Notes: generated by a model from the letters alone, not told the origin. A DNA stretch of 64,000 nucleotides from Gammaproteobacteria bacterium (GCA_021647705.1 JAKIUF010000004.1:74878-138877), one strand, 5' to 3'; numbered from the stretch's first letter, positions 14,685 through 36,621 are shown. Translations and numbers: made by a program.

Positions 14685-14911
14685 ACAATGTGAATTAAAC
14701 GCTAAAAACACGCTACTTTTAAAAATTACCGGGTATTTAACACAGAGGGCACAGAGTTTTGAGTGTTTTTCTCTGCGTTCTCTGCGCCTTTGCGACCTCT
14801 GCGTTTATAACACGCCACTTGGTCAGTACCACCACAACATAAGTTCCCAATGTATTGGAACGATTGCCCGCGGGTTTAAACCGCTGGATTCCAGCTAATT
14901 CACATTTAAAA
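14685..14911. mobile_element. MITE-like element, full copy (~228 bp)
   Basis: Terminal inverted repeats ACAATGTGAATTAAACGCTAAAAA / AGCTAATTCACATTTAAAA; CTCTGCG-rich core shared with other copies. Confidence 0.75.
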
Positions 14912-14921
14912 TGACCGGCGA

Positions 14922-15230
14922 TTAATGGCAGCCACAACCACCGGAACCACACCCTCCCGCTGGCTTGGACTTGGGTTTAGATTGGGCTTTAGTGGTGCTG
15001 TCAGCGGATTTTCCGGCTGACTCATCTTTACTGACATTCTTTTTATTACCGCCTTTAAAGTCGGTCTCATACCAACCGCCGCCCTTAAGACGAAACGCTG
15101 CGGCCGACACCAGCTTTTTCAATTCAGGCTTGTTGCAGACAGGACAATCCACCAGGGGATCATCACTCATTTTCTGAATGGCTTCCTGACGATGACCACA
15201 GGCTTTGCATTCATATTCGTAAATTGGCAT
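14922..15230 (-). CDS. FmdB-family zinc-ribbon protein
   Basis: MPIYEYECKACGH...CPVC plus C-terminal Gly/Cys tail; start taken at MPIYEY inside the longer ORF. Confidence 0.8.
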   Translation of the reverse strand: MPIYEYECKACGHRQEAIQKMSDDPLVDCPVCNKPELKKLVSAAAFRLKGGGWYETDFKGGNKKNVSKDESAGKSADSTTKAQSKPKSKPAGGCGSGGCGCH

Positions 15231-15344
15231 TTCTACCTCCTCAAACGGACCAACAAAAAAACATCCACGCATTATACCTGTCCGCTGGACCTTACCGCCA
15301 ATCTGCCCACGAATGCGGAATACTGATAAACTGCGCGCCGTCAG

Positions 15345-15830
15345 TTGGTTACCCCATTAATTAACAAACAAAATCCAACAGTATCAAGAACGAGCGATTC
15401 CATGTCCCCAAAAACCACCTTCAACGGCATCAAAATCACCACAGAAAACAAATGCGGTTTCTGTGACGGTGCCAAGTGCTGCACCTACATCACCGAAGAA
15501 TTGGAGACGCCACGCTCCATGCACGACTTCGACCATATGTTGTGGCAGATTTCTCACGAAAATATTCGTATTTATAAAGATGATGACGGCTGGTATCTGC
15601 TGGTGGAAACCACCTGCCTGCATCTGCAAAAAGATGGCCGCTGCGGCATTTATGACGACCGGCCGCATGTTTGCCGACAGCACGATAACGATTACTGCGA
15701 ATTCGACGCCCCGGCCGAAGATGGTTTTGACCTGTATTTCCAGGATTTTGAGCAGCTGACAAAATATTGTAAAAAACGCTTCAAGGGCTGGAAAAAACGG
15801 TTTAAAAAGTTTGAAAAAGAATACGAATAA
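15345..15830 (+). CDS. YkgJ-family Cys-cluster protein (PF03692 / UPF0153)
   Basis: CGFCDGAKCC...CLHLQKDGRCGIYDDRPHVCRQ. Confidence 0.75.
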   Translation: MVTPLINKQNPTVSRTSDSMSPKTTFNGIKITTENKCGFCDGAKCCTYITEELETPRSMHDFDHMLWQISHENIRIYKDDDGWYLLVETTCLHLQKDGRCGIYDDRPHVCRQHDNDYCEFDAPAEDGFDLYFQDFEQLTKYCKKRFKGWKKRFKKFEKEYE

Positions 15831-15838
15831 AGAATATT

Positions 15839-16537
15839 TCAGCGCTCAACGGTGGGCGGTGGCTGATCAGCTGGCGGCATAATATCGACAAAACTGTGAA
15901 TCGCGGCAAACTCACCCACATCCTTGTCCGGTGCCTGGCTGTCTGGCCGATGCACACACAACAGACTACCCATACCGTATTCCTGCGCCGAGCGCAGCAC
16001 CGGTAAACTGTCATCCACCAGCAACGTCGTTTCCCGCGCAAATAATTCCACGGTTTGCAGCTTGTTCCAAAAACCCGGATCTTCCTTCGGTACGCCAATA
16101 TCATGAGCACAGATAATGGCATCCAGATGCCCGGCCAGACGGGTACGCTCCATTTTCAGCGTAAGGCTCTTCATATGCGCATTGGTCACCAGCACGACAC
16201 GACGACCGCTGGTACGCACCACATCGAGAAAAGTCACTACATGAGGATGTATCGCAATGAGATGATCCACTTCCTCCTTGAGTGCCGCTACATCCATGTC
16301 CAGTTTCTCGGACCAATAATCGAGACAATACCAATTCATCGTACCCGCCACCGCACGATAGAGCCGAAATAACTCGGTGCGAGCCTCTTCCAGCGGCACC
16401 TCCCGCTCCTCTGCGTAACGGCGCGGCATATGCTCCCGCCAAAAATGGTTATCAAAATGCAAATCCAGCAAGGTGCCATCCATATCCAGCAGCACCGTGC
16501 GAATATCATTCCATTGGATCAAAGCCGTCTCGCTCAC
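15839..16537 (-). CDS. HAD-family GMP/IMP nucleotidase (YrfG-like)
   Basis: VLLDMDGTLLDLHFDNHFW is HAD motif I; 232 aa. Confidence 0.75.
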   Translation of the reverse strand: MSETALIQWNDIRTVLLDMDGTLLDLHFDNHFWREHMPRRYAEEREVPLEEARTELFRLYRAVAGTMNWYCLDYWSEKLDMDVAALKEEVDHLIAIHPHVVTFLDVVRTSGRRVVLVTNAHMKSLTLKMERTRLAGHLDAIICAHDIGVPKEDPGFWNKLQTVELFARETTLLVDDSLPVLRSAQEYGMGSLLCVHRPDSQAPDKDVGEFAAIHSFVDIMPPADQPPPTVER

Positions 16538-16702
16538 CGTCTATCGCTCCCGCTATCGCCAAATTCATCACAAAGTGTACCTGAATTTGGGGTTTGAGTA
16601 CGCAGCCCAGCCATTTTGGCCTAAACCCTGGCTACCAGATGCCGACGTTACAGTAGCGACCCTCTTTCCGCGGACAAAAAAACATCAAAACAGACCCGTG
16701 TT

Positions 16703-17170
16703 ATGCCAACAGAAAACGATAATATTTCGGCCATTCTGCAAAAACTGCCGGTATTTGCCGGGCTGACGGAGGATGAATACGGCCATATCCAGAAAATTTG
16801 CCAGCCTGCCCGTTTTAACGATGGGGAAACCCTGTTTGTGGAAGGCGACAGCAGCCCCTGCATGTATGTATTGCTGTCCGGCGACGTGCAATTGCGCACC
16901 CATAATCAGGGACCGATTCACTCGCTGAACCCTGGGGAACTGTTTGGTGAGATCGGTTTCATCAGCCAGCAAGACCGCACGGCCACCGCCATCGCGCGCG
17001 CGCGCGCTGTATTGCTGCAAATTAACTACGATGTCTTTCAGAATCTAGTACTACGCGAGCCACGCATCAGCTTCACCATCATGCGTAACATCATCATGAA
17101 TCTCTCCAACCACATCACACGTATGAACAAAGGCGACGTGCTGGATTTTATTTCCACGGACAACGCTTAA
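16703..17170 (+). CDS. cyclic-nucleotide-binding domain protein
   Basis: GELFGEIGFIS...RTATAIA is the cNMP-binding signature. Confidence 0.75.
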   Translation: MPTENDNISAILQKLPVFAGLTEDEYGHIQKICQPARFNDGETLFVEGDSSPCMYVLLSGDVQLRTHNQGPIHSLNPGELFGEIGFISQQDRTATAIARARAVLLQINYDVFQNLVLREPRISFTIMRNIIMNLSNHITRMNKGDVLDFISTDNA

Positions 17171-17284
17171 ATGTGAATTAAGGGCTAAATTATTCTGTTT
17201 TAGGCATATGCAGCAAAGTTTGGGGAATGAAAACCAATGATTTTATTCGTTTGGATATTTTTAGCGCTTAATTCACATTTAAAT
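17166..17284. mobile_element. short MITE-like copy (terminal repeats only, ~119 bp)
   Basis: CTTAAATGTGAATTAAGGGCTAAA ... TTTAGCGCTTAATTCACATTTAAA; lacks the CTCTGCG core. Confidence 0.7.
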
Positions 17285-17347
17285 CCGGACATAAATATAA
17301 TTATGTCCATAGCCTTTGCTTCAAATTGATTACTGAGCACCCATAAA

Positions 17348-17938
17348 TTATCGTATTAATGGTTCATTTTGTACCGCCGCCAATCGATCATCCGCAGTTT
17401 GTATCGTCACTGGCAAACAATTGGAAAGAACCAATTGTGGTGGTTCAAAAGAGAAAGTGAAATTACCGGCCTTGCGCAGCCCGCTAAGCCCCAGAATATG
17501 TCGTGTGCGACCAGGAAACACAGCCGCCTCCACATCATGCAACTCGCAATCGTCACCCAGGCGGATAACATCAAGACGATACACCGCAACCCGCTCACGC
17601 TGACCATTGGCGAGCACACCCGTAAGATCTCTAACAAAACTGGCCCGACCCTGCTCCTGCAATATTGCCAAACTGTGCTCATCAATCGTGTTGTAACTGG
17701 AGCCGGTGTCAACCAGGAAATCGACCCGACCAATCCCGGCAATCAAACCCTGTACATAAAAGGTCTTAACACGTTTTTCCACCATGGGGACAATATGCCC
17801 TGGCGGCACAGCTAAAGCCACGGAGCCCCCCCCCATGCCAAACAACAATACCCCACAGAGCAATCGTTTTGTTAAATTCACCCGCCATACCTCGTTTTGT
17901 TGCATACCACCGCGAGCAGGAAGCGGTAGCCTTACCAC
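17348..17938 (-). CDS. retropepsin-like aspartic protease (clan AA) with signal peptide
   Basis: FLVDTGSSYNTI is the DTG active-site motif; N-terminal hydrophobic signal. Confidence 0.7.
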   Translation of the reverse strand: MVRLPLPARGGMQQNEVWRVNLTKRLLCGVLLFGMGGGSVALAVPPGHIVPMVEKRVKTFYVQGLIAGIGRVDFLVDTGSSYNTIDEHSLAILQEQGRASFVRDLTGVLANGQRERVAVYRLDVIRLGDDCELHDVEAAVFPGRTRHILGLSGLRKAGNFTFSFEPPQLVLSNCLPVTIQTADDRLAAVQNEPLIR

Positions 17939-18157
17939 AAGAATAACGACTCAACCAACGTGATCCTGAAGGGATATCGCACTGCAAGGCAGGAAAACAA
18001 GTGTAATTGGAGCAGGAAGCGACTTACAATGCCTTCGCCCACATGAGCCACCAAGCCTTGAATATTATGACTAAGTCCAGGGATGTTGAGCACAAAAAAG
18101 CGATAAAAATATTGATGCGCAGAGTAATTTCAGACTAAGTTTTTTGGAGTTAATGAC

Positions 18158-18616
18158 ATGATTCACCACTACTCAATAGCAGTAAGTAATACGAAAAAAG
18201 TTGCCGATATTCTTTCCCGGTTGTTTGAAGGATCAGTTTCAGAATTTGGTCCTTATAAAAATTCGTACATGGTCTGGTTAGGAGACGAATATGGTACTGC
18301 CATAGAAGTGTACCCCGATGGCACTGAAATGATCCCGGACACAGAAAACGGGCAAGCCAGGTTTGCGCATAATGCGACACACTCTGGTTTTACTGCCACA
18401 CACGCAGCGATATCGATTAAACGAACGAGGGAAGAAATCTATACATTTGCAAAAGAATCAGGCTGGCGGGCTTTAGAATTATCGCGAGGCGAATTTAACG
18501 TAATCGAGTTTTGGATAGAAAACAAAGTAATGATTGAGCTGCTAACTCCTGATATGGCAAAAAATTATTTGGCGGTAACTGACAAATACAAATCAATTTC
18601 GACAACACCGGTTTAG
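18158..18616 (+). CDS. VOC/glyoxalase-like protein
   Basis: MIHHYSIAVSN...RLF N-terminal pattern typical of VOC folds. Confidence 0.45.
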   Translation: MIHHYSIAVSNTKKVADILSRLFEGSVSEFGPYKNSYMVWLGDEYGTAIEVYPDGTEMIPDTENGQARFAHNATHSGFTATHAAISIKRTREEIYTFAKESGWRALELSRGEFNVIEFWIENKVMIELLTPDMAKNYLAVTDKYKSISTTPV

Positions 18617-18641
18617 TAAGATTGAGATTTGAATTTTATAC

Positions 18642-19322
18642 TTACGCCGCAACTATGGCTTCAAAACTGCCAATCCATGCATTGAAAACCGGGCATTTTT
18701 CTCTCATTTGAATGACACCAATACGAGTTGCTATGGTAATACCAAGTGTTGTTTTAGAAAATTTTTTGTTTTTTGACCACTCGTCAAGATGTTTGGAAGG
18801 AGCTGTTTGAGGGCTGTTGTTAATAGCTTCTGGTTCGCCGTTTTGAGCTAAAACTCCTGAAATTTTGTGTTCATCAACATCAAGTTCCGCAGCAAGAATT
18901 TCACTGTCACTGAATAACAATGCTTCAAATTCATGGATTGCCATATAGGGAATAAACCTTCGTTCAGATTGTTGCTCTTTAAAAAGTGTATTAACTTCTG
19001 TTTTAGTTGCTTGGTTAATGCACGCTGCTATTTGTTCTGGCCCCGCATTGGGTGAAACTAAATCGATACCTGGCCACTCTTTGATTCCATAATAATCCAC
19101 CAAGGTTGTAACATAAGTATCTTGCTGCTGTTTCAAATGCAGCCCAAGATCTTTTTTGATGCGTTCAAAGCGAACATCGCCACCTTTTTGACCCGGCTTG
19201 CTCACTTGGGTGGCGACCATAAAAACCATCTTTTTTGCTAAATAAGGTGCAAGCACAGATTCCACAAAAATCTGTTCTGTTTTTCCCTCAACGATGGCAA
19301 CGACATTAATAAAATTACTCAT
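18642..19322 (-). CDS. DUF4276-family protein (TOPRIM-like), partner of the upstream ATPase
   Basis: Start taken at MSNFINVVAIVEGKTEQIFV, 4 nt after the ATPase stop; VEGKTE is the conserved DUF4276/TOPRIM-like N-terminal motif. Confidence 0.65.
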   Translation of the reverse strand: MSNFINVVAIVEGKTEQIFVESVLAPYLAKKMVFMVATQVSKPGQKGGDVRFERIKKDLGLHLKQQQDTYVTTLVDYYGIKEWPGIDLVSPNAGPEQIAACINQATKTEVNTLFKEQQSERRFIPYMAIHEFEALLFSDSEILAAELDVDEHKISGVLAQNGEPEAINNSPQTAPSKHLDEWSKNKKFSKTTLGITIATRIGVIQMREKCPVFNAWIGSFEAIVAA

Positions 19323-20421
19323 ATACCGGCCCCCCGGCAATGACATTTTTCGTCCAAAGCTCACCCACTGAATAATTTTCCAACCATTCAGAAAAGTCAG
19401 CTTCATTTAGCCTTTCAAACGATGAAGCCCCCTCTTTTCGGTTAACCACAATAATGTCATTAATGCCAAATTGGTCAACTAGTGCTGGGGACTGGGTCGC
19501 AACAATCACCTGAGTACGCTGTGCTGCTTGCTGAACCAGCTCTGCTAAAATCACAATTGCAGCAGGGTGTAGCCCTAACTCTGGCTCATCGATAATAATA
19601 GCGGAAGGTGGATTCGGTTGTAATAATGCTGTCGCAAGACAGATGAAACGTATAGAACCATCCGAAAGGTGATAAGGCTGCATAGGATAATCAGAGCCTT
19701 TTTGTGTCCAACTAATGTTGACTTCTTCTTTTTCACCACTTTGCCTGGGTTCTAATATAAAATCATCAAAAAATGGGGTAACCAAGCGTATAGCATTTAA
19801 TATTTCCTTGTATTCGCTGTTATGTTGGCCTCTTAACTTAAGCAAAAATGCACCCATATTTGATGCGTCTGTTCGCAGTACTTTGTTATCTTGCACGATC
19901 CCATAATGACGAATACCCGCTGTTGAGCCAGTATCATGGAAATGGTAAATCTGCCAGGATGCAATTGAGTTATAAACGGGCTGTGAATTTTTAGCGTCGG
20001 CTTTTTTATTTTTAACCTCGGCCACCATATGCGATGACCCCTCATCGCTGTCACCAAGCTCCCACCATTTTTTTAATCCGTCTTGATAATATCGTGCTTC
20101 ATCTTCAATAGCACAGGAATCACTCGGCGTTGCTACAAGCTTGAAGCGAAACCCACGAGGACCAAATCGTGTTTCAAACACCATTTTTTTGGTTACTTTT
20201 CTGCCGTGAAAAAGCAGATCACTGGCACCGCCATTATCTCTAACATAGCGATTCAAGTTCCCATCGATCAAAGCACTTAACATTTTAAAAAAGGAGATAA
20301 AGTTACTTTTACCCGCACCATTCCCCCCCACAATCACATTGAGGTTTTTTAATTCAAAGTCAACCAATTCACAGATTGATTTAAAGCCTTTTATGGTTAA
20401 TTTATCTAATGAATCAGTCAT
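19315..20421 (-). CDS. ABC-type AAA_21 ATPase (OLD/RecF-like)
   Basis: Walker A VIVGGNGAGKSNF; Walker B plus signature IIIDEPELGLHP; ATQSP D-loop region. Confidence 0.8.
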   Translation of the reverse strand: MTDSLDKLTIKGFKSICELVDFELKNLNVIVGGNGAGKSNFISFFKMLSALIDGNLNRYVRDNGGASDLLFHGRKVTKKMVFETRFGPRGFRFKLVATPSDSCAIEDEARYYQDGLKKWWELGDSDEGSSHMVAEVKNKKADAKNSQPVYNSIASWQIYHFHDTGSTAGIRHYGIVQDNKVLRTDASNMGAFLLKLRGQHNSEYKEILNAIRLVTPFFDDFILEPRQSGEKEEVNISWTQKGSDYPMQPYHLSDGSIRFICLATALLQPNPPSAIIIDEPELGLHPAAIVILAELVQQAAQRTQVIVATQSPALVDQFGINDIIVVNRKEGASSFERLNEADFSEWLENYSVGELWTKNVIAGGPVYE

Positions 20422-20657
20422 GGAACCTCCTAAATTGATTTCACTTCGGTGCCGGATATATCATAAAAAGCCATCGGTGTTTTTACCTGTGCCGATATCG
20501 ATCATTTTCATAACGCCGCGAAAATGATCATCTCTTTGATTTACTCACCGTGCCAAATTTAACGATTAGAAGATACCTGCTCAGGGTATTCGTTCCGAAT
20601 GATTTCATTTTCAGAAATCACAACCGCAGTACCCGTTTTTTTGAGTAATTTCTTACT

Positions 20658-21422
20658 TCAGGCTTCCGCACCCAAAACAGCGCGCACCACATCAAGATCC
20701 TTTTTGGTATCCACCCCGGCGAGCGGTACTTCAACTGCTTCGGCAACGTGGATACGATGCCCATGCCACAACACACGCAGCTGCTCGAGGGATTCCGTTT
20801 GCTCCAGCGGGCATGGTGACCACTGGCTGTACTCACGCAAAAAACTCGCACGATAAGCATAAAGGCCAATGTGCCGAAAGTGCTCACCATGATCGGGAAA
20901 AATTTCCGCCGTATTGGCAAAAGCCTCCCGGTCCCAGGGAATACTGGCGCGGCTGAAATAAAGTGCCATGCCCTGTCGGTCTTTCACCACTTTCACTGCG
21001 TGCGGATCAAATAATTCGGCCGTGGTGGTAATCCGGGTGCAGACGGTGGCCATGCTCGCTGCGGTACAAGCCGCAAGATTTTCCGCCACCTGATGGATCA
21101 CTGCCGAGGGCATCAATGGTTCATCACCTTGCAGATTCACCACAATCTGGTCGTCGGCAAATGTTAATTTTTCTGCTACTTCCGCAATACGATCAGTACC
21201 GGATTGATGTGCCACCGAAGTTAAACAGGTTTCAGCACCAAATTGCTGTGCGGCGGCTTCAATTTGTGAGCTGTCTGTAGCAATAATCACCTGTGCTGCA
21301 CCGCTTTCCAGCGCACGCTCGTAAACATGCTGAATCATCGGTTTGCCTGCAATATCCAGCAGCGGTTTTCCCGGCAGGCGGGTTGCCGCATAACGTGCAG
21401 GAATGATGACGCTGAACTTCAT
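20658..21422 (-). CDS. kdsB: 3-deoxy-manno-octulosonate cytidylyltransferase
   Basis: [16 protein letters not shown]...GDEP motifs; 254 aa. Confidence 0.9.
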
Positions 21423-21601
21423 GCAATTTCCTCATCAGCAGCCAGTACGCGCGCTTCTTCTTCGAGCATTACCGGAATATCGTCACGAATGGGATACGCC
21501 AGCCGGTCTGCTTTGCATACCAGTTCTTTTGCATCTTTTAAATAAACCAACGGCCCTTTGCAAATAGGACATACCAAAATATCGAGTAGTTTTTTATCCA
21601 C
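21419..21601 (-). CDS. Trm112/YcaR-family protein
   Basis: [14 protein letters not shown]...DIPVML; conserved position between kdsB and lpxK. Confidence 0.85.
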
Positions 21602-21659
21602 GTTATTTACCTGAAGTTGTTATCTAAATTGTTGCCCAAAAAGTATGTTTGATACACAC

Positions 21660-22631: not shown

Positions 22632-22701
22632 AATGCCTCACCCACCGAAATAAACAATGCTTGCTTAAAGAGATAACCTGTACGTTCCAATATCACCACA
22701 G

Positions 22702-22789
22702 GTAGGGTGGGCATGTTTTTTTGCCCACGCGGTAATCCCGCAATGATTTTCTGTAACCCGTGAGCACAAACAACGTGCCCACCCTACCG
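22702..22789. repeat. REP-like hairpin doublet (GTAGGGTGGGCA..TGCCCAC), inverted pair
   Basis: 22702-22731 and the reverse complement of 22758-22789 match each other and the copy at 32851. Confidence 0.7.
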
Positions 22790-25749: not shown

Positions 25750-28200
25750 TTATTTTGCAGGAAGGTTTTGCTGAAAGGTTTTGTCGGCGGGGTGTATTAA
25801 AAGATGTGGTAGCTTTGCATCCGGTTTGTCCTTCACATGCCAATAGCGCGCAGCTTGCTGACGATGGGTGTTCACAGCATCCAGCCCGTCTTTACTGCCT
25901 AATTGCAGTTCGATGGCACCATGCCGGGCCGTGTCGAACAGGCGCACCTGCTGATCCCTATAACGTTGTACGATGTGTGCTTTGGGAAAACCGTAACGAT
26001 TACGGTAACCTACAGGAAACAACGCTACTGTCGGTGATACCGCCGCCAAAAATGCCGGGGTGGACGAGGTACGGCTGCCGTGATGCGGTGCCACCAGTAC
26101 ATCACTGGCCAGTTTGTTGCCAAACACTCTCACCAGTTCATCTTCTGCTGCCCGCTCGATATCACCTGTAAGCAATACACTGTGTTCACCCGCCTGCACC
26201 CGTAACACACAAGAGCGGTTGTTGCTCTCACGCCCACCCACATGCACATGTTTCCCCGGACTCAACATCGTAAAAATCACCCCATCCCATTGCCAGCGCT
26301 GCCCGGCCTGACACAGTTCGGCTCCGTCAATGCGCTGCGGCACACTGCTGAGCACCTGCTGTACCGAAATAGTTGCCCGCAGTCCTGCCACTCCGCCAAT
26401 GTGATCGTTATCACCGTGGCTCACCACCAACGTATCGATGTGCCGCCGTCCCTGCGCACGCAGATACGGCGCGACCACTGCCTCTCCGGTATTAAAGCCG
26501 CTGGAAAATTGTGGCCCCGTATCAAATACCAGTACGTGATTTTGTGTCTGCACCACCGCCGCCAGCCCCTGCCCCACATCCAGCAGAGTGAAGCGCGCCT
26601 GTCCCTGCGGAATAACTGCCGGGGATACAAACAACAATGGCAACAATCCAACCAGCCATACCCATCGCGCCGGTACACCCCGCGGTGCCAGTAACCAGAG
26701 AATACCCATCACCGCCACCGGCATGGCCCACAGCGGCGGAGCCATCTGCTGCCATGCGGCCAGTTTCCATTGTGCAAGCCCATCCAGCCACCACCACAAC
26801 GCATCCAGGCTCAATGTTGACAAGCCCAGCAGCCATCCGCCCAGCGTAGTGGAAAACCCCAGGCAAATACTGCCCAGCAACGTTAGAGGCACAGTCACCA
26901 GACTGACCCATGGCACCGCCAACAGGTTGGCCAGTGGTGCAACCACGGAGGCCTGCTGAAATAACAGCAGTAACGCAGGAAACAAACCCACAGCCACCAG
27001 CCATTGCACCCGTCCCCAGCGCCACCAGTACGAATTCATTGCCAACCGGCCAGACATGCCGTACACGATCACCGCCACTGCGCCAAACGATAACCAGAAA
27101 CCGGCGGCCATGACGGCCAACGGGTCAATCATCAATACCAGCAACAAAGCCAGCGCCAGCAAATGTGAAGGACGTGTGTGGCGCTGCACAATGATCGCCA
27201 GCATCACCACAGCCACCATTACCAACGCCCGCTGCGTGGGCACGGAAAAACCGGCCAGCATGGCGTACACGGCGGCGGCCAGCAAAGCGGCCACAGCACC
27301 CGCTTTGGCCGCAGGCCAGTGGATTACAGCATGGGCCGAGCAACGCCACAGCCTGTGCATCAGAAAAAAGGCAAAGCCTGCCACTAATCCCACATGCAGA
27401 CCGGAAATAGCCACCAGGTGATTGGTCCCGGTACGCATCAGCACATCCCACTGCGGCTGGCTGATTTGCTGACGGTCTCCAATGGCCAGTGCCAACACAA
27501 TGCCACGCAATGGATGATCATCGAGGGCCGCAAGAATCCGGGTACGCAGTGTTTCCCGTAGCTGGCCTACCCGGTAAGCATTGCCCGCCGGGGTCAGGCG
27601 TTGATTCAGCGAAACCGTAGCATCCACTGCCGGATGCTTTGTAGCATGACGCACGTAACCTTTGGCACGAATACCCTGCTGGAACAACCATGCCTCGTAA
27701 TCAAATCCTCCGGGGTTGGAAAAACCGTGCGGGCGTTTCAGGCGCACTTGCAGCCGCCAGCGCTCTCCCACATGGACAGAGGGTATTTTATGCTCCTTGC
27801 GGGAGTACCAGCTCAGTAACAGTTTACCCGGCACCGCTTGAATTTCGCCCTGCCAATGCAGGCTGTGCGGCACAAACTGAAAACGCAATCGACGCCCCTG
27901 CCACTCCGGCAACGAGGCGATATAACCTTCCACCACCACATCCTGCCCTTCCAGTTCCGTTGGCAGTGCGCCAGCCAATAATGAGTGGGCAATAATGCTG
28001 GCCATGAAAAAACCCATGCCGGTGCCGATAACCAAATTCATGAAAACCGGCCAGGGACGCCCCCGAAAAAACCAAGCCAGTGCGGTTACGGCCATCAGCA
28101 ACGTGACCAGTAAACCCAGCAGAAAAGCCCTGCCCGGCAACACCGATAATGGCTGCAAACCCGCAGTACCTATCAAAAATCCCAGCGCCATCCTGCGCAT
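25750..28200 (-). CDS. comEC: DNA internalisation competence protein ComEC/Rec2
   Basis: 816 aa; N-terminal OB/DUF4131, multi-TM competence domain, C-terminal metallo-beta-lactamase (VVSHGDNDHIGG). Confidence 0.85.
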   Translation of the reverse strand: MRRMALGFLIGTAGLQPLSVLPGRAFLLGLLVTLLMAVTALAWFFRGRPWPVFMNLVIGTGMGFFMASIIAHSLLAGALPTELEGQDVVVEGYIASLPEWQGRRLRFQFVPHSLHWQGEIQAVPGKLLLSWYSRKEHKIPSVHVGERWRLQVRLKRPHGFSNPGGFDYEAWLFQQGIRAKGYVRHATKHPAVDATVSLNQRLTPAGNAYRVGQLRETLRTRILAALDDHPLRGIVLALAIGDRQQISQPQWDVLMRTGTNHLVAISGLHVGLVAGFAFFLMHRLWRCSAHAVIHWPAAKAGAVAALLAAAVYAMLAGFSVPTQRALVMVAVVMLAIIVQRHTRPSHLLALALLLVLMIDPLAVMAAGFWLSFGAVAVIVYGMSGRLAMNSYWWRWGRVQWLVAVGLFPALLLLFQQASVVAPLANLLAVPWVSLVTVPLTLLGSICLGFSTTLGGWLLGLSTLSLDALWWWLDGLAQWKLAAWQQMAPPLWAMPVAVMGILWLLAPRGVPARWVWLVGLLPLLFVSPAVIPQGQARFTLLDVGQGLAAVVQTQNHVLVFDTGPQFSSGFNTGEAVVAPYLRAQGRRHIDTLVVSHGDNDHIGGVAGLRATISVQQVLSSVPQRIDGAELCQAGQRWQWDGVIFTMLSPGKHVHVGGRESNNRSCVLRVQAGEHSVLLTGDIERAAEDELVRVFGNKLASDVLVAPHHGSRTSSTPAFLAAVSPTVALFPVGYRNRYGFPKAHIVQRYRDQQVRLFDTARHGAIELQLGSKDGLDAVNTHRQQAARYWHVKDKPDAKLPHLLIHPADKTFQQNLPAK

Positions 28201-28337
28201 TTTTAACGTCCCTGTGTTGTACCTGGATTACCCTTATTGGTTGCTATCGAGACAACCCCTTTCCCACCGCCTGAAATTGTGGATAATGGCCGACCTTGCC
28301 GCCCATTAAAACAGCCCGTTAAAAACAAACAATCCGC

Positions 28338-28892
28338 ATGCCAAAACGATTTATCAAACGCTTCATGCCGAATCAACAAAAGATTCGTGACCATAAGCAT
28401 TTGCGATTTCTGGGCGTCCTGCTGCACGACCCCAACATTTTCCACTTGAACCGGCGTTCGGTCTCCGGCGCATTCAGCGTCGGCCTGTTTATGGCTTTTG
28501 TACCTATACCGCTGCAAATGATATTCGCCGCCATTGGGGCCATTGTATTGCGAGTAAACCTGCCCATTTCCGTGGCACTGGTATGGATCACTAACCCGCT
28601 AACCATCCCTCCCATCTATTATTTTACTTATAAAGTGGGCACCTGGATTTTGCAAACACCCACGCGGGACATCCAGTTTGAATTATCGACTCACTGGCTA
28701 ATGGGGGAGCTGGGTGTGATTTGGCAACCACTGTTGTTAGGCTGCCTTGTCACCAGTACGGTTCTTGCCGTGCTGGGCAATTTATCAATTCGCCTGTTTT
28801 GGCGTTTGTATGTCAATCAGAGCTGGCGCAAACGCCGACAGGATCGTGCCGAGAGAAAAAAGCAGAAAAAGGCAAAAAACAATACGGGTTAA
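28338..28892 (+). CDS. DUF2062-family membrane protein
   Basis: RGVLLHDPNIFHLNRRSV..GLFMAFVP is the DUF2062 pattern; the stop codon lies inside the MITE terminal repeat. Confidence 0.7.
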   Translation: MPKRFIKRFMPNQQKIRDHKHLRFLGVLLHDPNIFHLNRRSVSGAFSVGLFMAFVPIPLQMIFAAIGAIVLRVNLPISVALVWITNPLTIPPIYYFTYKVGTWILQTPTRDIQFELSTHWLMGELGVIWQPLLLGCLVTSTVLAVLGNLSIRLFWRLYVNQSWRKRRQDRAERKKQKKAKNNTG

Positions 28893-29178
28893 ATGTGAAT
28901 TAAGTGCTAAAAATATTCAACCGAATCACAGCGTCATAAAATCCAACGCAAAGGCGCGAAGACGCAGAGAGCGCAAAGGGTTTAGAGGATCACAAGCAAA
29001 AGACATGCCCCTCGTAGCCATTGCGATTTTATTGCATGCAGGTTCAGTAAACACCCGAATCACAAATGCTGTAGTGTATCTCTCTGCGCTCTTTGCGTCT
29101 TCGCGTTGGGTTTTCATTATTCAGGCCCAACCAGCATGCGAATAAAAACAAGGTAATTTAGCCCTTGATTCACATTTA
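28889..29178. mobile_element. MITE-like element, full copy (~290 bp)
   Basis: TTAAATGTGAATTAAGTGCTAAAAA ... TTTAGCCCTTGATTCACATTTA; internal long imperfect hairpin gcgcgaagacgcagagagcgcaaag / ctctctgcgctctttgcgtcttcgcg. Confidence 0.8.
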
Positions 29179-29183
29179 GCTGT

Positions 29184-29870
29184 TCAGCTTTCTTCAAATT
29201 CACCGTTCGTCAAACGCAACACCCGCGACATGCGTTGCGCCAGTTGCAGATCATGTGTCACCAGCACCAGACTAGTACCCAGTTCGTCATTAAGTTCCAG
29301 CATTAAATCGTAAACCTGTGCTGCGGTGTGCTGATCCAGATTACCCGTGGGCTCATCGGCCAGCACACACAGGGGTTTGGTGATCAGCGCACGGGCGATG
29401 GCGGTACGTTGACGTTCGCCGCCCGAAAGCTCCGCCGGTTTGTGCCGCAACCGTGCCGCCAGCCCCACTTTGCTCAGCAGGTCAGCCGCCTGATCACGGG
29501 CCTCTGCCGTTGATAAACCACGAATCAACAACGGCATGGCCACGTTTTCCAGCGCTGTGAACTCCGCCAGCAAATGGTGAAACTGGTAGACAAACCCCAG
29601 CATTTTATTGCGCAACCGACCTCGCTCCGCCTCGTTAAGTGCATCCAGACGCTGGCCATCCACGCTGACTTCGCCGCGTGTCGGTTTGTCGAGCCCGCCC
29701 AGCAAATGCAGCAAAGTGCTTTTACCCGAACCTGATGCCCCCACAATAGCCACCCGTTCACCGCGCTGGATATCCAGCTGGATATTGCGCAGCACTTCCA
29801 CGGCCAGTCCACCTTCATCGAAGGTTTTGTTCAGCCCCTGACACTGCAATACGCTGTGTTGATCACTCAT
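29184..29870 (-). CDS. lolD: lipoprotein-releasing ABC transporter ATP-binding protein
   Basis: Start taken at [10 protein letters not shown]; Walker [10 protein letters not shown]; LSGGERQR; overlaps lolE by 8 nt. Confidence 0.85.
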
Positions 29871-31116
29871 AACGCAATGCCTCCGCGGGTTGGGTGCGCG
29901 AGGCTCGCCAGGCCGGATACAAGGTCGCCAACACACTCAGTCCAAAGGAGATGGCGGAAATTTTGAACACATCATCCCAATGCAGCTCCGAGGGAAAGGT
30001 ATTGATGTAATACACATCCCCCGGCATGAACTGAATACCCAGCACCCCTTCCAGCCAACCCACCACAACATCGAGGTTAAGCGATAACGTGACGCCAAGC
30101 GCTGCGCCCAGTAATACGCCAATGATGCCAATCACTACGCCCTGTATAATGAAAATTGTCATAATAGAACCCGGTGTACTGCCCAGAGTGCGCAAAATGG
30201 CGATATCGGCCTGCTTGTCCGTCACCACCATCACCAACGTAGAAACGATATTAAACGCCGCCACGGCCACAATCAGCATCAAAATAATAAACATCATCAT
30301 TTTTTCAATTTTTACCGCACGGAACAGATTGGCATGCCGCATGGTCCAGTCGGAAATCCAGTAACCACCCGGCAATGCATCCGCCAGTTCATTACGCACA
30401 GGTACAGCCTCAAACATATCCGTCAGTTTCAAGCGCAGTCCGGTAACGCCATCCCCCATACGAAACAGGCGCGAAGCATCATCAAGATGAATCAGCGCCA
30501 GGGCGCTATCGTATTCATGCATGCCCACTTCAAAAATGCCCTTCACGGTAAAACGCTTCAAGCGCGGCAGAATGCCCGCCGGGGTATTACTGGCCTGCGG
30601 TGTCACCACGGTGACCTTGTCACCCAAAGCGGCGTTCAATTTACGCGCCAACCCCACCCCCAGTACGATGCCAAACTCCCCCGAGTGCAAATCATCCAAC
30701 TTGCCATAAATCATTTTCTGCCAGACATCTGACACCGCCGGATCACGATCAGGCAACACGCCGCGCAACAAACTGCCCTGCACTTGCGAACCAAAACTGA
30801 GCATCACCTCCTTGCGCACATAGGGTGCGAGCCCCACGACACGGGATTCATGTTTTTCGATAGCCTCCCCCAGCGCAGCCCAGTCCGTCAACGGCTCACT
30901 GCTCAAACGAGTGATGGTAATGTGCGAAGCCATGCCCAAAATGCGCTCGCGTAGTTCCTTTTCAAAGCCATTCATCACTGACAACACGGTAATCAGTGCC
31001 ATTACCCCAAGCACGATGCCCATCATGGATGTCAGGGAGATAAAAGAAATGAACTGGTTGCGACGTTTGGCGCGTAAATAACGCAGACCGATGTAAAGTT
31101 CCAGAGGTTTAAACAT
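29863..31116 (-). CDS. lolE: lipoprotein-releasing system permease
   Basis: 417 aa; FtsX/MacB-like topology with large periplasmic loop; conserved position upstream of lolD. Confidence 0.85.
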
Positions 31117-31346
31117 GAGGTGCCAATGTGGTAACTGAATTTAGTAGTGACGGTAAATAATACAATGTGCCCGACCGAGCACTACCCGCGAGCGCCGATG
31201 TTAACACGCGACAATTGACAGAGGTACTCAGAGCCTTGCCCCGGTATGAAATGAATCAGGTGGAAAGGTGGACTTTTCCAATCGCACCAAGCTGTATACA
31301 CTGCAAGACGATTTACACCGTTTTGCACCCGTAAGCGAGGTTACCG

Positions 31347-32267
31347 ATGCGCCAATACCATTCGACACCCAAATACCCGCACAATTTCCGCCCGGTCGCG
31401 CTGCTGCTCGTCCTGCTGGGTCTGAGTGCCTGTGCCACTTCGGACAAAATGACAGACACCACCGCAAACGACACCACCCTGCAAACTGTCACACAGATAC
31501 CTGATACTGCACAGAACGACAACACTGGCACCACTACCGAATCAACAGACATTGAGCCTTCCGCGACAGAGTCCGCCATAAGCGAACCCGAACCCAGCAC
31601 ACAAGAGCCTGTCACTTCTCGCACGGAAACCGAGCCAGTCTCCATTGACGCTCCCTGCAAAAATTCGCCCTACAACAAATATGAAAAACAGTCACTCGCC
31701 AGCATTGCCAAGGGATTGAGCGCAACCACCGCAGGCACTTACGGCGTCGGTTTCCGAAATCTCGACGAACACAAAAAATGGAGCGACACTCATAATGCAT
31801 TGTTCAGCGCGGTTAATCAGGCCTGCACCACATTGAGCAAATGTGCAAAACAGCATCCAGAAGACAAAACAACAGAATGTGCAAAAGAGGCCAAACAGTT
31901 TGACGAATGGCAAAACCTAGCAGCACGCTTCGCAGAAAAGGCAAAACAAAGCGAAACCACACAACCTCCGAAAATTTGTTCTTTCACTGCAAACCTTGAT
32001 GATGCTGCCAATTGCTTTCATGCCCTGGCCGACAATATCGATAACACTTGCACCACCAGTGATTGCAAAAAAACCAGCAACTGTTGGCGAGGTATCGGTT
32101 TTCTCGACGGCGCGATCAATCAAGCCGTTTCTGCCTGCGCATTTGTACGCACACCATTAGCGGAATGTCATGGTTATGTGACGGCAACCCAGCGACGCAA
32201 AGACAAGTTTGAACGCTGCGTGCAGATGCAGAAAGGCCTCAATACACGTATTATTCCCGTGTTATAA
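31347..32267 (+). CDS. lipoprotein with Thr/Glu-rich linker and Cys-rich C-terminal domain
   Basis: Lipobox LLGLSAC; low-complexity T/E/S region; about 12 Cys in the C-terminal 190 aa. Confidence 0.55.
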   Translation: MRQYHSTPKYPHNFRPVALLLVLLGLSACATSDKMTDTTANDTTLQTVTQIPDTAQNDNTGTTTESTDIEPSATESAISEPEPSTQEPVTSRTETEPVSIDAPCKNSPYNKYEKQSLASIAKGLSATTAGTYGVGFRNLDEHKKWSDTHNALFSAVNQACTTLSKCAKQHPEDKTTECAKEAKQFDEWQNLAARFAEKAKQSETTQPPKICSFTANLDDAANCFHALADNIDNTCTTSDCKKTSNCWRGIGFLDGAINQAVSACAFVRTPLAECHGYVTATQRRKDKFERCVQMQKGLNTRIIPVL

Positions 32268-32305
32268 GCGTCATGCAGATATTAACGAGACGCGCGTGAG
32301 AAAAT

Positions 32306-32539
32306 TTACCGCCCTGAAACACCATAATCGATAACTGATTGTGTTCTGGCTTTTATTTTATCGGTGTGCGCCTGTCCATTTTTTGCATTAATGGCCATTT
32401 GATACTTTTCTTTAACGGTGGCTTTCTCAACATCAGTGAGCTTGTCCCACTCCGTTTTGGTGTGACCGAAATAACCCGTTGAACATCCCGGTAATAAAAC
32501 AATGATAAAAGCGAGCGAGTAATATTTAAGCATTTTCAT
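32306..32539 (-). CDS. small lipoprotein
   Basis: Signal peptide plus lipobox LLPGC; 77 aa. Confidence 0.5.
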   Translation of the reverse strand: MKMLKYYSLAFIIVLLPGCSTGYFGHTKTEWDKLTDVEKATVKEKYQMAINAKNGQAHTDKIKARTQSVIDYGVSGR

Positions 32540-32584
32540 GACTATCCAAAAATTTGATCTGTTTATGTTAGCAACATCTGTCCT

Positions 32585-32740
32585 GTGATGTGAATTAAGG
32601 ACTCACTCTGCTCGCACTTTTTACTGAAAATACCGTCATCCCGTTGTTTTTCTCTGCGCCCTTTGCGCCTCTGCGACCTCTGCGTTAAATACTCGGTTAT
32701 TTTTTGAGCAACCCTGAGCGCTAAAATACCTTTTTAAACA
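32585..32740. repeat. partial or rearranged MITE-like copy
   Basis: TGTGATGTGAATTAAGGACT end plus tttttctctgcgccctttgcgcctctgcgacctctgcg core; opposite terminal repeat not intact. Confidence 0.6.
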
Positions 32741-32850
32741 ATCATCGGATATGTAATATTAAAAAACACAATGGTTTCTGCTTTTAAATGATCTTTATGT
32801 TTAGGGCTTCGGCATTACCCCAAAACAATCCGTTTTCTCATATGAAATAT

Positions 32851-32933
32851 GTAGGGTGGGCACGTTGTTTGTGCCCACGAGTTACAAGAAACCTTTCGGG
32901 GTGCCACGTGGGCAAAAAAACATGCCCACCCTA
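32851..32933. repeat. REP-like hairpin doublet (GTAGGGTGGGCAC..), inverted pair
   Basis: 32851-32879 and the reverse complement of 32901-32933; same family as 22702. Confidence 0.7.
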
Positions 32934-32997
32934 CTTATGCTGCGTTAAATACCCATGATTTTTAAAAGTAACGTGCTTTAAAACTCCTCAATTCATA

Positions 32998-34326
32998 TTA
33001 TAAATACACTTTGGCTTGCAAAATATCTTCCAGCTTAACCGGGAAAGAAAACTCGCCATTTCCAAATCTCATCAAAATACGGATGCGTTCGTCATCCACA
33101 CTTTCCAGTTGCCCCTGACGGCGTTTTCCTATTGACGTTTCCACTTGAATATTTTTCCCGATATATCGGGAAAGCTGTGATTTTCGAACCTTTCGATATT
33201 CCCTTGTTTTTGCAGAACCTGCTTTTGCTGGAGGACTTACTCGGGCGGCAGTCGGGTTTGACGAGCGCCCTCCTCTAACATTAGCTGTATCATTTTTTCT
33301 TGCTGTTGTTTTGCCAGCCGAGACATTCCATTCAATTTGACTAAAATCAACATTGTTTCCGTTAATAACAACTTCCATACCAAGAATATCCAGAATATCA
33401 GCTGTTTCATAAAATTCCAGACCACTCAGCAGGGTAGACTCAGCAGGATTCAAGCTGGCAGTAAAGCGTCCTCCAGTGGTCAGAAACTGACGGTAGTCAT
33501 CCACAACTTTTTTCGGGAAAACTGCGCCAAGTTCTGCCGTCAACTGAGCAGTATTGGCATCAACATATTGTTCAATACTGCCTCCGTTTTGCTCCGCACA
33601 GTATCTGTTCCTGAGTTTATAATAGCCTGTATCGTTATACTCTATTTCCAATTTTGATATTTCAGGTTCGGTGGGTTGTAAACCTGCCGACTTCATTTGA
33701 TTCAAATCAAGTCTGGTCTGTACAATAAGGCCAACACTATAAAGGTCACTATCCTTAATACGCATCTCCACGTTCATTTGTCCTGATTTTTGCTCAAATT
33801 TCATGGCAACACTAAGATTCAATAGGTTGTAGCCCATCGCAGAAAGTTCATTAATACCAAATTTTTTAATATCTCCACAGCCCAGCGCATCCATTCGCTC
33901 AATTAAAAGTGGCTCTTCAGGTGTTTCTGACTCTATTGACTGTGCCTGCATGTCACCCAGCATCACGAATATTTCACTATCGATATCAATATTCGCGTTT
34001 TTCATTTCAAAGCCAACATACTCTGGAAACTCCCCGTCCTTAATACGGCTCCCCAACATAAAAATATCAAGAATATTGGGGGCAGAAAAATTTATTTCCT
34101 GAATAGTGAATTCATCTGAAGTCATTTTTGGCCGAATAACAACACCTGTTATACCGATGACACCATCCAGCAATGAACTGAATATTGAGTCATAGGTTAT
34201 ATCAACAAAAGGAGCCACCGTAACAATAGCATCATCAACATTACTCTTGATGTCATACCAGATATAGGCCTTGATACCGCCATATCCTAAAACAGGCAGA
34301 ATTAATAGTAATTTCAAAAAACGCAT
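32998..34326 (-). CDS. hypothetical membrane-anchored protein
   Basis: Start taken at MRFLKLLLILPVLG (signal/TM); 443 aa; no recognisable motif. Confidence 0.45.
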   Translation of the reverse strand: MRFLKLLLILPVLGYGGIKAYIWYDIKSNVDDAIVTVAPFVDITYDSIFSSLLDGVIGITGVVIRPKMTSDEFTIQEINFSAPNILDIFMLGSRIKDGEFPEYVGFEMKNANIDIDSEIFVMLGDMQAQSIESETPEEPLLIERMDALGCGDIKKFGINELSAMGYNLLNLSVAMKFEQKSGQMNVEMRIKDSDLYSVGLIVQTRLDLNQMKSAGLQPTEPEISKLEIEYNDTGYYKLRNRYCAEQNGGSIEQYVDANTAQLTAELGAVFPKKVVDDYRQFLTTGGRFTASLNPAESTLLSGLEFYETADILDILGMEVVINGNNVDFSQIEWNVSAGKTTARKNDTANVRGGRSSNPTAARVSPPAKAGSAKTREYRKVRKSQLSRYIGKNIQVETSIGKRRQGQLESVDDERIRILMRFGNGEFSFPVKLEDILQAKVYL

Positions 34327-34679
34327 ATTGTTTTTCCTTTGGATTTCCTGAGGTCTAATTTCCTCAACGCACCTGTTTCTACCTAAACATTCACTTTTTG
34401 GGGATAGTACGAACACCATCATTGAGCAATACTGAAAGCGGATAAAGACAATCAGAACACCCATAGCAGGCAGTTTTTAGGTAATATGGCGCAGTATTAC
34501 TTATGAAAAATCGTGTATTATCAACAACTTTGCCAAAATAAAGCATCTCTACTCAGGCTTTATCGACATCCTGGCCTGTTACCTGAGGATCTTTGATTGC
34601 GGCGGCGAATATTGGACTCAATCTCAATTATCACCCTGCAACTTAACACCGGTATGAACCTGCCGATGACTAACATAAT

Positions 34680-35762
34680 ATGTTGATCATTCCCTACAGT
34701 GCTGAGCTGAGTCTGGCCAAACCTCCTTTGGTCACCTACGCTGTCATCCTACTGTGTTTGATCATTTATTATATGCAGGATACTAACCGTGCAGACATCA
34801 TTCAGGCAACCCAGCCATTTTGCAACCAGCTCTACGATGAAACCTTGGATCAGAACGATCTTGATTTCCTCAGCACCCAAAAATCCACCTGTGTCGGTTT
34901 TATCTACAATATGCACTCCCAACCGGATAAAAGCATTATTGACCACTGGATAAAAAAAGAAAATGACAAATCACACATATATTCTGATGAAGAACTAGAG
35001 GACGTAATACAGATAGCCAAACAACATTATAATAATTTCAGTCTGGAGGCACCGGCCAGCCTTGATGCCAAACTAATGTATAACCCGGCATCCTGGAACC
35101 CCATCAGAACAATATCCTCCGCACTTTCACATGCAAGCTGGTGGCATGTTATCGGCAATCTGATTTTCTTTTTTGCCTTCGCCGCCGCTATTGAAACATT
35201 GCTTGCTCGTAAACTGCACTATATCGGCTTTATGATAATGGTGGCATTAATCACCGATATCACCTATTCCCTCACCATCGCGATCAACAACTCTCCTCCC
35301 ATACCTTCTTTGGGATTATCTGGTGTGGTATCTGGCGTCATTGGTTTATCAGCCTTTTTGATGCCCAAAGCCCGTATTCGCACCTTTATCTGGGTGATCG
35401 TATTTTTTGTTAGGGCATTTCCAATGCCCGCTTGGATATTGGCACTCTGGTTTATTGGCTGGGATGCCTATAATCTGATGGCTTATTCAGACCACGGCGG
35501 GATCAATCTCGTTGCCCATGTCAGTGGAGGAGTAGCCGGTTACCTTTATGGCTTTTTCTTTTTAAAAAACCGCCGAGAGGAAATCCAGGATGAATTGAAT
35601 GATGAAATTGAATATATGAAAAGCACCCGCAATAAACAATTCGCTACCACAAACTCCTACAAACTCCTACAAAGGGGGAGACAAGTATCTACAAAATATC
35701 CGAGAGCAGGACGCAAAGCGAGAATACGCAAATTACAACCAAAAACTGTATCGATTAGTTAA
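34680..35762 (+). pseudogene. rhomboid intramembrane serine protease; apparent N-terminal part of a split rhomboid-TPR gene
   Basis: Catalytic GLSGVVSG (Ser) and AHVSGGVAG (His) in TM helices; the reading frame is broken after a 10-bp tandem duplication at 35651-35670. Confidence 0.7.
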
Positions 35763-35856
35763 TGCTGGCAATAGCAGTGAAGCAATTATTCTGTTTCTGA
35801 AAGATTATGACCATTATAAAGATAGCATAGAAGTTTACGAAGAATTATTTCAGGAA

Positions 35857-36264
35857 ATGGAAAAATGGCAGAAATGCCGTGCGTTACTATGCCTGGGCCG
35901 ACTTGTTATCAGCTTGTTCCTTGAGAAAAATAATAATAAAGATGCATTAAGAATCACAAAACGCTGCCTGGATATACAAGAGGACTTTGTGCTTTCCGAA
36001 CCGGCTGAAGCATTGAAACTCACTCTCTATGCTATAGATCTACAGCAATATCCGCTGGCTTTACGAGTTATTCGTAGAGCCGATCTACGCTACGGCGAGC
36101 ATATTGACTTGGTATACAGTCAGTTATTGGAGGCCAGACTGCTATTATTGCACTTGGACAATCGGAATGAAGCAAAAGCTGTCTTAAAAAGACTGATCGA
36201 AAAAAAACCGGACACATATCGAAAAGAGATTTCTACATTGATACAAATATATAAACACGGATAA
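35857..36264 (+). pseudogene. C-terminal helical/TPR-like part of the split rhomboid gene
   Basis: Frame +1 is open from at least 35671 and joins the rhomboid frame if one 10-bp repeat unit is removed. Confidence 0.5.
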
Positions 36265-36314
36265 ATTTAGCATCTTTAGAGGTCGGCATTAACACCCAAA
36301 TTCAAAGGACATGG

Positions 36315-36621
36315 CTTAAATGTGAATCAAGTATGAAAACACGCTACTTTTAAAAGTCACTGAGCATTTAACATAGAAATCGCAGAGACGCAGAGAGAAA
36401 CAACACTAAACACTCTGTGCACTTTGCGTCTCTGCGTCTCTGCGACCTCTGTGTTTATAACACGCCACTGAGCAATGCCACGACAACCTAACTTCCCAAT
36501 GTATTGGAACGCTTATCCGGGAATGTAAACCTCTGGAGGTCCGACTAAAAACAGGTCGGAATGATAGTGTTTTCAGCAAAAATAGCTAACAAAATTATTT
36601 AGCGTTTAATTCATATTTAAA
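36315..36621. mobile_element. MITE-like element, full copy (~307 bp)
   Basis: CTTAAATGTGAATCAAG...TTTAGCGTTTAATTCATATTTAAAG terminal repeats; core nearly identical to the 14685 copy (cccaatgtattggaacg, ctctgcgacctctgtgtttataacacgccact). Confidence 0.8.

Follow-up and report, generated by a model that had tools for sequence, protein, structure and literature searches.

Repeated elements at gene borders

The window, that is, the whole 64-kb stretch analyzed here, belongs to the metagenome-assembled genome (MAG) of one uncultured gammaproteobacterium (proteins MCF6255283.1 and MCF6255300.1). At the borders of genes such as those for DUF502, cNMP_binding, DUF2062, and PAP2 proteins, it contains a family of short repeats that resemble MITEs (miniature transposable elements bounded by inverted repeats). 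The repeats had been noticed in an inspection of the DNA without database searches (hereafter the sequence-only reading); every copy that it listed exists and lies where it had been placed, and the four gene names agree with Pfam. We found five elements with the inverted ends ATGTGAATTAAG...CTTAATTCACAT and three fragments (Table 1), and the copies take up approximately 2.5% of the window. The elements range from 108 to 411 bp and contain no transposase open reading frame (ORF).

The 14-mer AAATGTGAATTAAG matched the window at 23 sites when up to three mismatches were allowed, compared with 11.5 +/- 2.9 in shuffled sequences. When up to two mismatches were allowed it matched at 10 sites, compared with a calculated expectation of approximately 0.4, and all 10 of these were located at the ends of claimed elements. 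A repeat search independently recovered the end repeats as families D5, D6, D14, and I18 (I18 with 23-nt arms, 96%), the CTCTGCG/CGCAGAG arms of an internal hairpin as D3, D4, I14, and I21, and a body of approximately 120 nt common to the copies at 14688 and 36320 as D7 and D11.

The tips of the elements are ATGTG...CACAT, and the TTAA outside the tips is a target duplication. The limits originally proposed for the copies at 14688, 17171, 28893, and 36320 had extended past the tips; the exact limits are those in Table 1. The supposed partial copy at 32585-32740 turned out to be the left part of a complete copy, and the copy close upstream of DUF502, which had been put at 17 bp from the start codon, lies at a slightly different distance. 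The three copies that had been described as full fall into two sub-families, type A (14688 and 36320) and type B (28893), and between the two types only the ends and the hairpin arms are common. The short copy at 17171, described as consisting of terminal repeats only, is actually a type B element minus the hairpin, and the same coreless junction is present in another genome (L054; L-numbers denote loci compared from other genomes or metagenome assemblies).

Table 1. Elements, fragments, and a nested repeat doublet in the window
Position	Strand	Feature	Length	Repeat families; fold z-score	Flanking 4-mers	Gene context and remarks
12022-12118	.	Hairpin-core fragment, decayed, without terminal repeats		I2, I17		One flank type A-like, the other type B-like; 16 nt past the aspS stop
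14688-14905	+	Type A MITE, left hairpin arm partly deleted, right sub-terminal part deleted	218 bp	D7, D11, D14	TACA (14684-14687), TTAA (14906-14909)	19 nt upstream of the DUF502 ATG (14668), or 15 nt with the flanking 4-mer included; downstream of Zn_ribbon_8, a co-directional gene
17171-17278	+	Short MITE, type B backbone without hairpin core	108 bp	I18; -5.5	TTAA (17167-17170), TTAA (17279-17282), perfect	TAA stop of the cNMP-binding gene (17168-17170) within the left duplication
28893-29175	-	Type B MITE, long hairpin (arms 28944-28978 and 29082-29107, loop ~100 nt)	283 bp	I21; -9.0	TTAA (28889-28892), TTAG (29176-29179)	DUF2062 stop included in the TTAA
32588-32998	-	Type A MITE, reversed, one hairpin arm (32645-32695), degenerate ends	411 bp		TGTG/TATA, degraded	~245-bp internal insertion including a REP-like doublet; stop of a 488-aa gene (32998-33000) overlaps the right tip
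32851-32934	.	Nested inverted doublet of GTAG-headed hairpins, REPIN-like, separate repeat family		I1, I4, I25		
36320-36616	+	Type A MITE, most complete window copy, hairpin at 36370-36455	297 bp	I14, D7, D11; -6.2	TTAA (36316-36319), TTAA (36617-36620), perfect	PAP2 stop (36617-36619) within the right duplication
44420-44484	.	Decayed right half of type B, one arm and degenerate end		I7, D4		Adjoins the stop of gene 44473-46791
56868-56950	.	Right-terminal type A fragment, intact end repeat	~85 bp	I11, I16, I24		Between divergent genes, 25 nt upstream of where the epimerase gene starts (56843)

Distribution of the ends and an IS982-type partner

A scan of the GTDB representative genomes with the exact 19-mer ATGTGAATTAAGNGCTAAA showed that the ends are not confined to the window: at least 109 stretches from elsewhere, in other genomes, carry them. 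Among the matches listed, the carriers were almost all Beggiatoaceae (Thioploca, Marithrix, Halobeggiatoa, and Thiomargarita), Methylococcales (Methylobacter, Methylovulum, and Crenothrix), and vent Gammaproteobacteria. Many of the matches, including those on many Halobeggiatoa and Marithrix contigs, were located 100-125 bp from a contig end, as expected because repeats break assemblies.

Two Logan contigs from short-read assemblies of samples that contain the source organism (SRR32233993 and SRR32233990) also stop inside or at MITEs, L111 ending 108 nt past the cNMP gene and L112 195 nt past the 135-aa gene. Since these contigs terminate at copies, the family fragments the assemblies of its lineage. 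Exact-protein look-ups of other flanking genes, made to obtain further empty sites, likewise led only to Logan contigs that stop within the elements.

Pairs of ends defined units of four size classes among the matches listed, namely approximately 130 bp (the most frequent), 210-300, 350-480, and 990-1010 bp. Elements of 988-1007 bp with these ends were present at L060, L064, L076, L075, L005, and L113. The element in L060 (2702-3689, 988 bp) contains a single intact ORF of 296 aa, which matched the NCBIfam model NF033520 (transpos_IS982) with 138.3 bits (cutoff, 130; E = 3e-40) and also matched Pfam DDE_Tnp_1, whereas IS5 models scored far below their own cutoffs. The transposases of L076 (Methylobacter tundripaludum SV96), L064, L075, and L005 showed 74-97% protein identity, some being frameshifted. 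A total of 1861 homologues were found (E <= 1e-20), and one cluster carried the source name "IS982 family transposase [Methylobacter sp.]". The cognate insertion sequence (IS) that the sequence-only reading had proposed to look for, with the same terminal repeats, thus exists, and its transposase is of the IS982 family.

The last codons and the TAA stop of the transposase gene are encoded by the end repeat itself (...YLRVSS*). The end variants of the window MITEs, AAGGGCT and AAGCGCT, have their counterparts in transposase variants with SP or SA at the C-terminus. The MITEs and the IS share only 18-20 terminal nt, with terminal repeats of the form ATGTGAATTAAG[A/G/C]GCTAAA. The interiors of the MITEs are unrelated to the IS and vary between host lineages, yet they recur at many loci and in many genomes. 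An origin of the MITEs by internal deletion of the IS was ruled out, the 18-20-nt ends being the sole shared sequence.

The end repeat was also found in L020, L040, L055, L060, L081, and L088, where the MAG labels include Saprospiraceae, Lokiarchaeon, Roseivirgaceae, Thermodesulfovibrionales, and Nitrospinaceae. The L060 transposase is approximately 97% identical to that of Methylobacter tundripaludum. These occurrences reflect either horizontal transfer or mis-binned contigs.

Target duplication and insertion polymorphism

We compared the flanks of all end pairs in a set of 73 non-redundant elements (the five window copies and 68 others). A 4-bp direct duplication was found directly outside ATGTG...CACAT: the flanking 4-mers were identical in 37 of the 73 elements, compared with a permuted mean of 8.4 and a maximum of 16, and differed by one base in a further 21. 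No duplication signal was detected at 2, 3, 5, or 6 bp in the same elements. The consensus of the duplication is T-(T/A)-(A/T)-A, with TTAA as the commonest sequence. The copies thus have definable common ends and a TTAA-like target duplication of 4 bp. In the window, the duplications of the copies at 17171 and 36320 are perfect and those of the others are degraded (TTAA/TTAG, TACA/TTAA, and TGTG/TATA; Table 1).

The junction between the DUF2062 and ABC-transporter genes, occupied in the window (TTAA[28893-29175]TTAG), was compared with the orthologous sites of relatives. The site is empty, with a single TTAA, in L045 (MAG M_MetaBat.51, 88-92% identical; ...GAATTAACTGTTCAGC...) and in L164 (D96SM.bin.23; ...GGATTAACCGTTCAGC...). 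In L165, a 53-bp mini-element that consists of ends only lies between TTAA and TTAA, and in L001, which is 96-97% identical to the window, the arrangement is a nested one, in which a complete type A element abuts the right part of a type B element whose loop is inverted. Because relatives carry both empty sites and other alleles, the insertion at 28893-29175 is real and was rearranged after the close relatives split. The stop codon of DUF2062 belonged to the original TTAA target. The empty sites and the duplication in the flanks bear out the earlier proposal of insertion at TTAA-like targets.

Short ORFs inside the copies had been regarded as spurious, and we agree that they are annotation artifacts. 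ORF 28747-29145 consists mostly of element sequence, and it is not a conserved gene, since the orthologous loci lack most of its sequence.

Common ends, a target duplication, orthologous sites that are empty, a cognate IS, and differences among close relatives have all been shown, and from them we conclude, with a probability of roughly 0.9, that the repeats are non-autonomous MITEs that use IS982-family ends and have inserted at TTAA-like sites. In the mechanism that we propose, an IS982-type DDE transposase supplied in trans from elsewhere in the genome would bind both ends and insert the element at T-(T/A)-(A/T)-A, preferably TTAA, and repair of a 4-bp staggered cut would yield the 4-bp duplication. 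In the vent gammaproteobacterial lineage, backbones A and B carry a long hairpin. This palindrome is unstable, as seen in flipped loops, lost arms, and A/B chimeras, and deletions give rise to the 108-bp and 53-bp derivatives.

Several observations weigh against this interpretation. The first concern the identity of the IS. The consensus of IS982 terminal repeats is 5'-AC(N)6T(N)5TT, and 57 of the 69 IS982 members in ISfinder start with AC, the other 12 lacking this start (PMC7335449). The tips of the cognate IS, ATGTGAATTAAGAGCT, fit this consensus at A1, T9, and T16 but have T rather than C at position 2, so that they start with AT, and C at position 15. The end repeats of the window lineage also differ from those of the sequenced IS at position 13 (G/C, not A).

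Other points concern the partner in the genome itself. A tblastn search of the 64-kb window with the cognate transposase gave chance matches only (E > 1), and sampling of loci in the nearest genomes (M_MetaBat.51 and S013_42) turned up no such transposase. The transposases that end in SP or SA (L113 and L114) stem from unbinned metagenome assemblies and are thus only candidates for the lineage's own IS. An IS partner within the same genome is thus presumed rather than seen. Moreover, imperfect 4-mers at the flanks or degenerate ends mark three of the window's five copies as probably old and immobile. The mobility of the MITEs is read from sequence comparison. We infer mobilization in trans in the window genome from the ends held in common, from the duplication, and from differences between near-identical genomes; effects on transcription, if any, are likewise inferred.

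Insertion at stop codons

Of the five copies in the window, four have the stop codon of a host gene within, or overlapping, a flanking 4-mer (stops at 17168, 28890, 32998, and 36617). Three of these coincidences had been recognized in the sequence-only reading, which placed the stop codons inside the element; they lie in the duplication instead, and the stop at 32998-33000 is a fourth case. Among 106 element ends from all loci, 14 adjoined the stop of an ORF (open frames of at least 80 codons), compared with 2.9% of all TTAA sites (binomial P = 2e-6). Both ends of the elements in L036, L065, and L073 adjoin convergent stops.

Only 1 of 42 MITEs was located inside a long ORF. Convergent gaps were enriched (13 of 41 elements, compared with 95 of 663 intergenic gaps) and divergent gaps were depleted (2 of 41, compared with 96 of 663). 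The claim that the copies lie mostly between convergent genes thus holds for the window (5 of 8), whereas across the family the enrichment is merely about 2-fold.

TTAA contains TAA whichever strand is read, and insertion makes a second copy of it, so that a stop codon, or a pair of overlapping convergent stops, can take up an element without harm to the genes. Such neutrality, combined with selection against insertions into coding sequences and promoters, would cause the elements to pile up at the 3' ends of genes. The precise coincidence of elements with stop codons is thereby given a clean mechanistic reason.

The hairpin core

The arms of the core consist of three to four tandem CGCAGAG(R) units that face their complement. 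Folding of the RNA, which had been suggested as a check, gave predicted energies of -24 to -74 kcal/mol for the cores and of -35 to -103 kcal/mol for whole elements (z-scores, -5.5 to -9.0).

We considered whether the core is a separate mobile palindrome that has invaded short MITEs, in which case the full copies would be nested composites. A similar core does occur within two unrelated backbones, A and B; the coreless short form has an identical junction in two genomes; the extra segment of type B is bordered by a 5-bp AAACC repeat; and the core at 12022-12118 lacks terminal repeats. However, a scan of metagenomes in which the query was the hairpin loop with its adjoining bases and no MITE ends yielded 49 loci, including some from hydrothermal-vent assemblies (UOFV01), and 29 of the 36 cores away from contig edges had a MITE end within 350 nt, mostly at a fixed distance of approximately 78 nt. 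The cores without nearby ends were embedded in recognizable decayed type A sequence. A chimera of A and B joined at the hairpin (L154) indicates that recombination at the palindrome can shift a core between backbones, and AAACC could equally be the junction of a microhomology deletion. An independent palindrome is therefore improbable: since most cores lie near ends and the rest in decayed type A sequence, the core is part of the MITE.

The core is also variable. Relative to a loop of fixed orientation, the flanks of type A stand in either order (34 versus 16), and the arms are often unequal in length or half-deleted. The hairpin behaves as an unstable palindrome, an integral and recombination-prone module of the two sub-families, and does not look like a structure under tight selection.

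Terminators, promoters, and host use

The same hairpins could mean that the elements are kept mainly for use by the host, as bidirectional terminators, mRNA-stabilizing hairpins, or portable promoters, and that their mobility is secondary. The very stable predicted folds and the enrichment in convergent gaps are consistent with this view. In addition, each end contains an outward TTCACA hexamer, three bases from the tip, that resembles a -35 box; at 17272-17301 it gives an 11/12 match to a sigma-70 promoter, and members of the IS982 family form hybrid promoters (PMC7335449).

However, none of the copies contained a canonical intrinsic terminator (a GC-rich stem of 5-20 bp and a loop of 3-8 nt followed by a T-run): all 20 terminator-like sites in the two regions scanned (11500-17800 and 28300-37300) lay outside the elements, the loops of the cores are at least 14 nt long, and the tails after the hairpin are TTTATAAC or TTAAATAC rather than T-runs. 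The often asymmetric or half-deleted arms and the flipped loops argue against purifying selection on the structure, and in two relatives the orthologous site functions although the element is missing. Transcription from the 11/12 promoter would run antisense into the gene next to it, and upstream of DUF502 we read only a poor -10 box that overlaps the ATG. The TTAA target, combined with selection against harmful insertions, accounts for the positions at 3' ends. Retention mainly for host use thus appears unlikely, and the regulatory roles that had been raised for the copies (terminator, mRNA stabilizer, or promoter) are possible but speculative and found no support here.

No part of the window matched an Rfam model at the gathering threshold. 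At a permissive E-value, the only models that two copies matched were those of eukaryotic microRNA precursors, with scores that fell far short of the cutoffs; hairpins in general have this effect. We searched for an association with tRNA or transfer-messenger RNA genes and found none.

A more specific idea, which we consider a long shot, is that the tandem-unit hairpin is a functional cassette that has been spread to gene ends as a mobile 3'-end regulatory module. The cassette would then be, for example, a protein-binding array or a signal for RNA processing or for termination without a U-tract, and its flippable loop would give it two states. The TTAA duplication would let it enter between touching or overlapping stop codons with neither gene damaged.

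REP-like hairpins and a Y1 transposase

Short palindromic repeats in bacteria may also be of the repetitive extragenic palindromic (REP) or REPIN type, which have a GTAG head, make no target duplication, and are moved by a tyrosine transposase of the Y1/RAYT (REP-associated tyrosine transposase) group. A Y1_Tnp pseudogene is present in the window at 8388-8670 and an intact paralogue in L001, and genuine, polymorphic doublets of GTAG-headed hairpins occur as well. However, the ATGTGAATTAAG family lacks a GTAG head, duplicates 4 bp of its target, and possesses long terminal inverted repeats that are identical to the ends of a DDE IS; the REP-like repeats differ from it in sequence and are merely nested inside one MITE copy. 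A REP/REPIN origin of the repeats is thus very improbable, and their assignment to IS982-type MITEs stands.

The GTAG-headed hairpins (GTAGGGTGGGCA...TGCCCAC or GTAGGGTGGAAC...GTTCCAC) form inverted REPIN-like doublets unrelated to the MITEs and were found in the window at 11707-11738/11894-11925, 22694-22787, and 32847-32942. The doublet at approximately 32859-32940 is cleanly missing in L001, where the blastn junction joins window positions 32858 and 32941. L001 carries the IS200-like Y1_Tnp gene in intact form (1114-1557, Pfam E = 1e-7); the window copy (8388-8670, plus strand) is riddled with stops. The hairpins and Y1_Tnp fit the REP/REPIN type and are a candidate RAYT/REPIN system.

GTAG hairpins were also found inside type A MITEs or in place of their right part, directly after the ...GGAATGACGGTATTT... 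hairpin, as in L119 (approximately 5690-5860), L133 (reverse complement of 1350-1760), and the window (32851-32934). This suggests that REP-like elements land preferentially in type A MITEs.

Comparison with known elements

A search of the literature on MITEs in Methylobacter or Beggiatoa, and on the end sequence itself, yielded no description of the window family. The family is previously undescribed; the kind of element is already well known.

Like the window elements, the Correia elements of Neisseria (CREE/NEMIS) are MITEs of approximately 100-150 bp whose long terminal repeats contain GTG[G/A]ATTAA. They likewise insert at AT-rich palindromic targets, lie at gene boundaries, yield hairpin RNAs, and may contain outward promoters. 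They duplicate TA (2 bp), whereas the window family duplicates 4 bp. They are not known outside Neisseria, and no parent IS is known for them, whereas the parent IS family of the window elements has been identified. The resemblance of the end sequences is a lead only.

A close published parallel is MITECca01 of the Cardinium endosymbiont of Oedothorax gibbosus, whose parent is ISCca4 of the IS982 family (PMC9769881). Like the window elements, it is short (approximately 240 bp), lacks a transposase, has IS982-matching inverted repeats, is present in multiple copies, and is presumed to be mobilized in trans (PMC9769881). In contrast, its host belongs to another phylum and its ends are those of another IS (ISCca4), and it keeps a short stretch of the parental IS beyond the repeat, whereas the window MITEs share nothing past 18-20 nt. 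ISCca4 resides in the same Cardinium genome as its MITE, whereas the parent IS has not been seen in the window lineage. The text on MITECca01 describes no tandem-unit hairpin core, no family of elements whose interiors are unrelated, and no association with stop codons (PMC9769881).

The cognate IS resembles the IS982 family in its length of approximately 1 kb, single DDE ORF, terminal repeats of approximately 20 bp with T at position 9, and short direct repeats (PMC7335449). It differs in its AT rather than AC tips and in the transposase stop inside the end repeat, and the window elements are non-coding derivatives rather than ISs.

Abundant MITEs that fragment assemblies have been reported for Candidatus Thiomargarita nelsonii (PMC4853749), which is likewise one of the large sulfur bacteria (Beggiatoaceae). 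However, those elements have a 10-bp direct repeat and a 19-bp inverted repeat, or TATAG ends, with no DDE parent identified (PMC4853749), and they are separate from the window family.

Our results do not overturn the current understanding of MITEs; they add a well-documented case of IS982-mobilized MITEs in which the parent is identified, the 4-bp target (TNNA) is defined, and empty sites exist. The elements vary even between genomes of 96-97% identity and could therefore be used as strain markers for metagenomes of hydrothermal vents. Assemblies of uncultured vent, sulfur-oxidizing, and methanotrophic bacteria break at repeats of this family.

Other features of the window and its relatives

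Near the 3' end of comEC, L001 (299-3912) carries an extra segment of approximately 3.6 kb relative to the window (approximately 25836-25945), flanked by a duplication of approximately 110 bp of window sequence. Within this segment lie the Y1_Tnp gene and, at 397-650, a type B MITE, as well as three ORFs that have no Pfam match.

An ORF of 368 aa (19315-20421, minus strand) shows sub-threshold similarity to anti-phage AAA ATPases (MADS3, 88.8 bits against a cutoff of 420) and weaker matches to the retron Eco8 and PtuA effector models, and may be a defense gene.

Window positions 48563-49589 and 52900-53926, which are 4.3 kb apart, are 72-74% identical, and further paired stretches were found at 49920-49977/54272-54329 and 50898-50941/54636-54679. 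This indicates that the neighboring large ORFs that hold them (47789-50140 and 51397-54495) are tandem paralogous genes.

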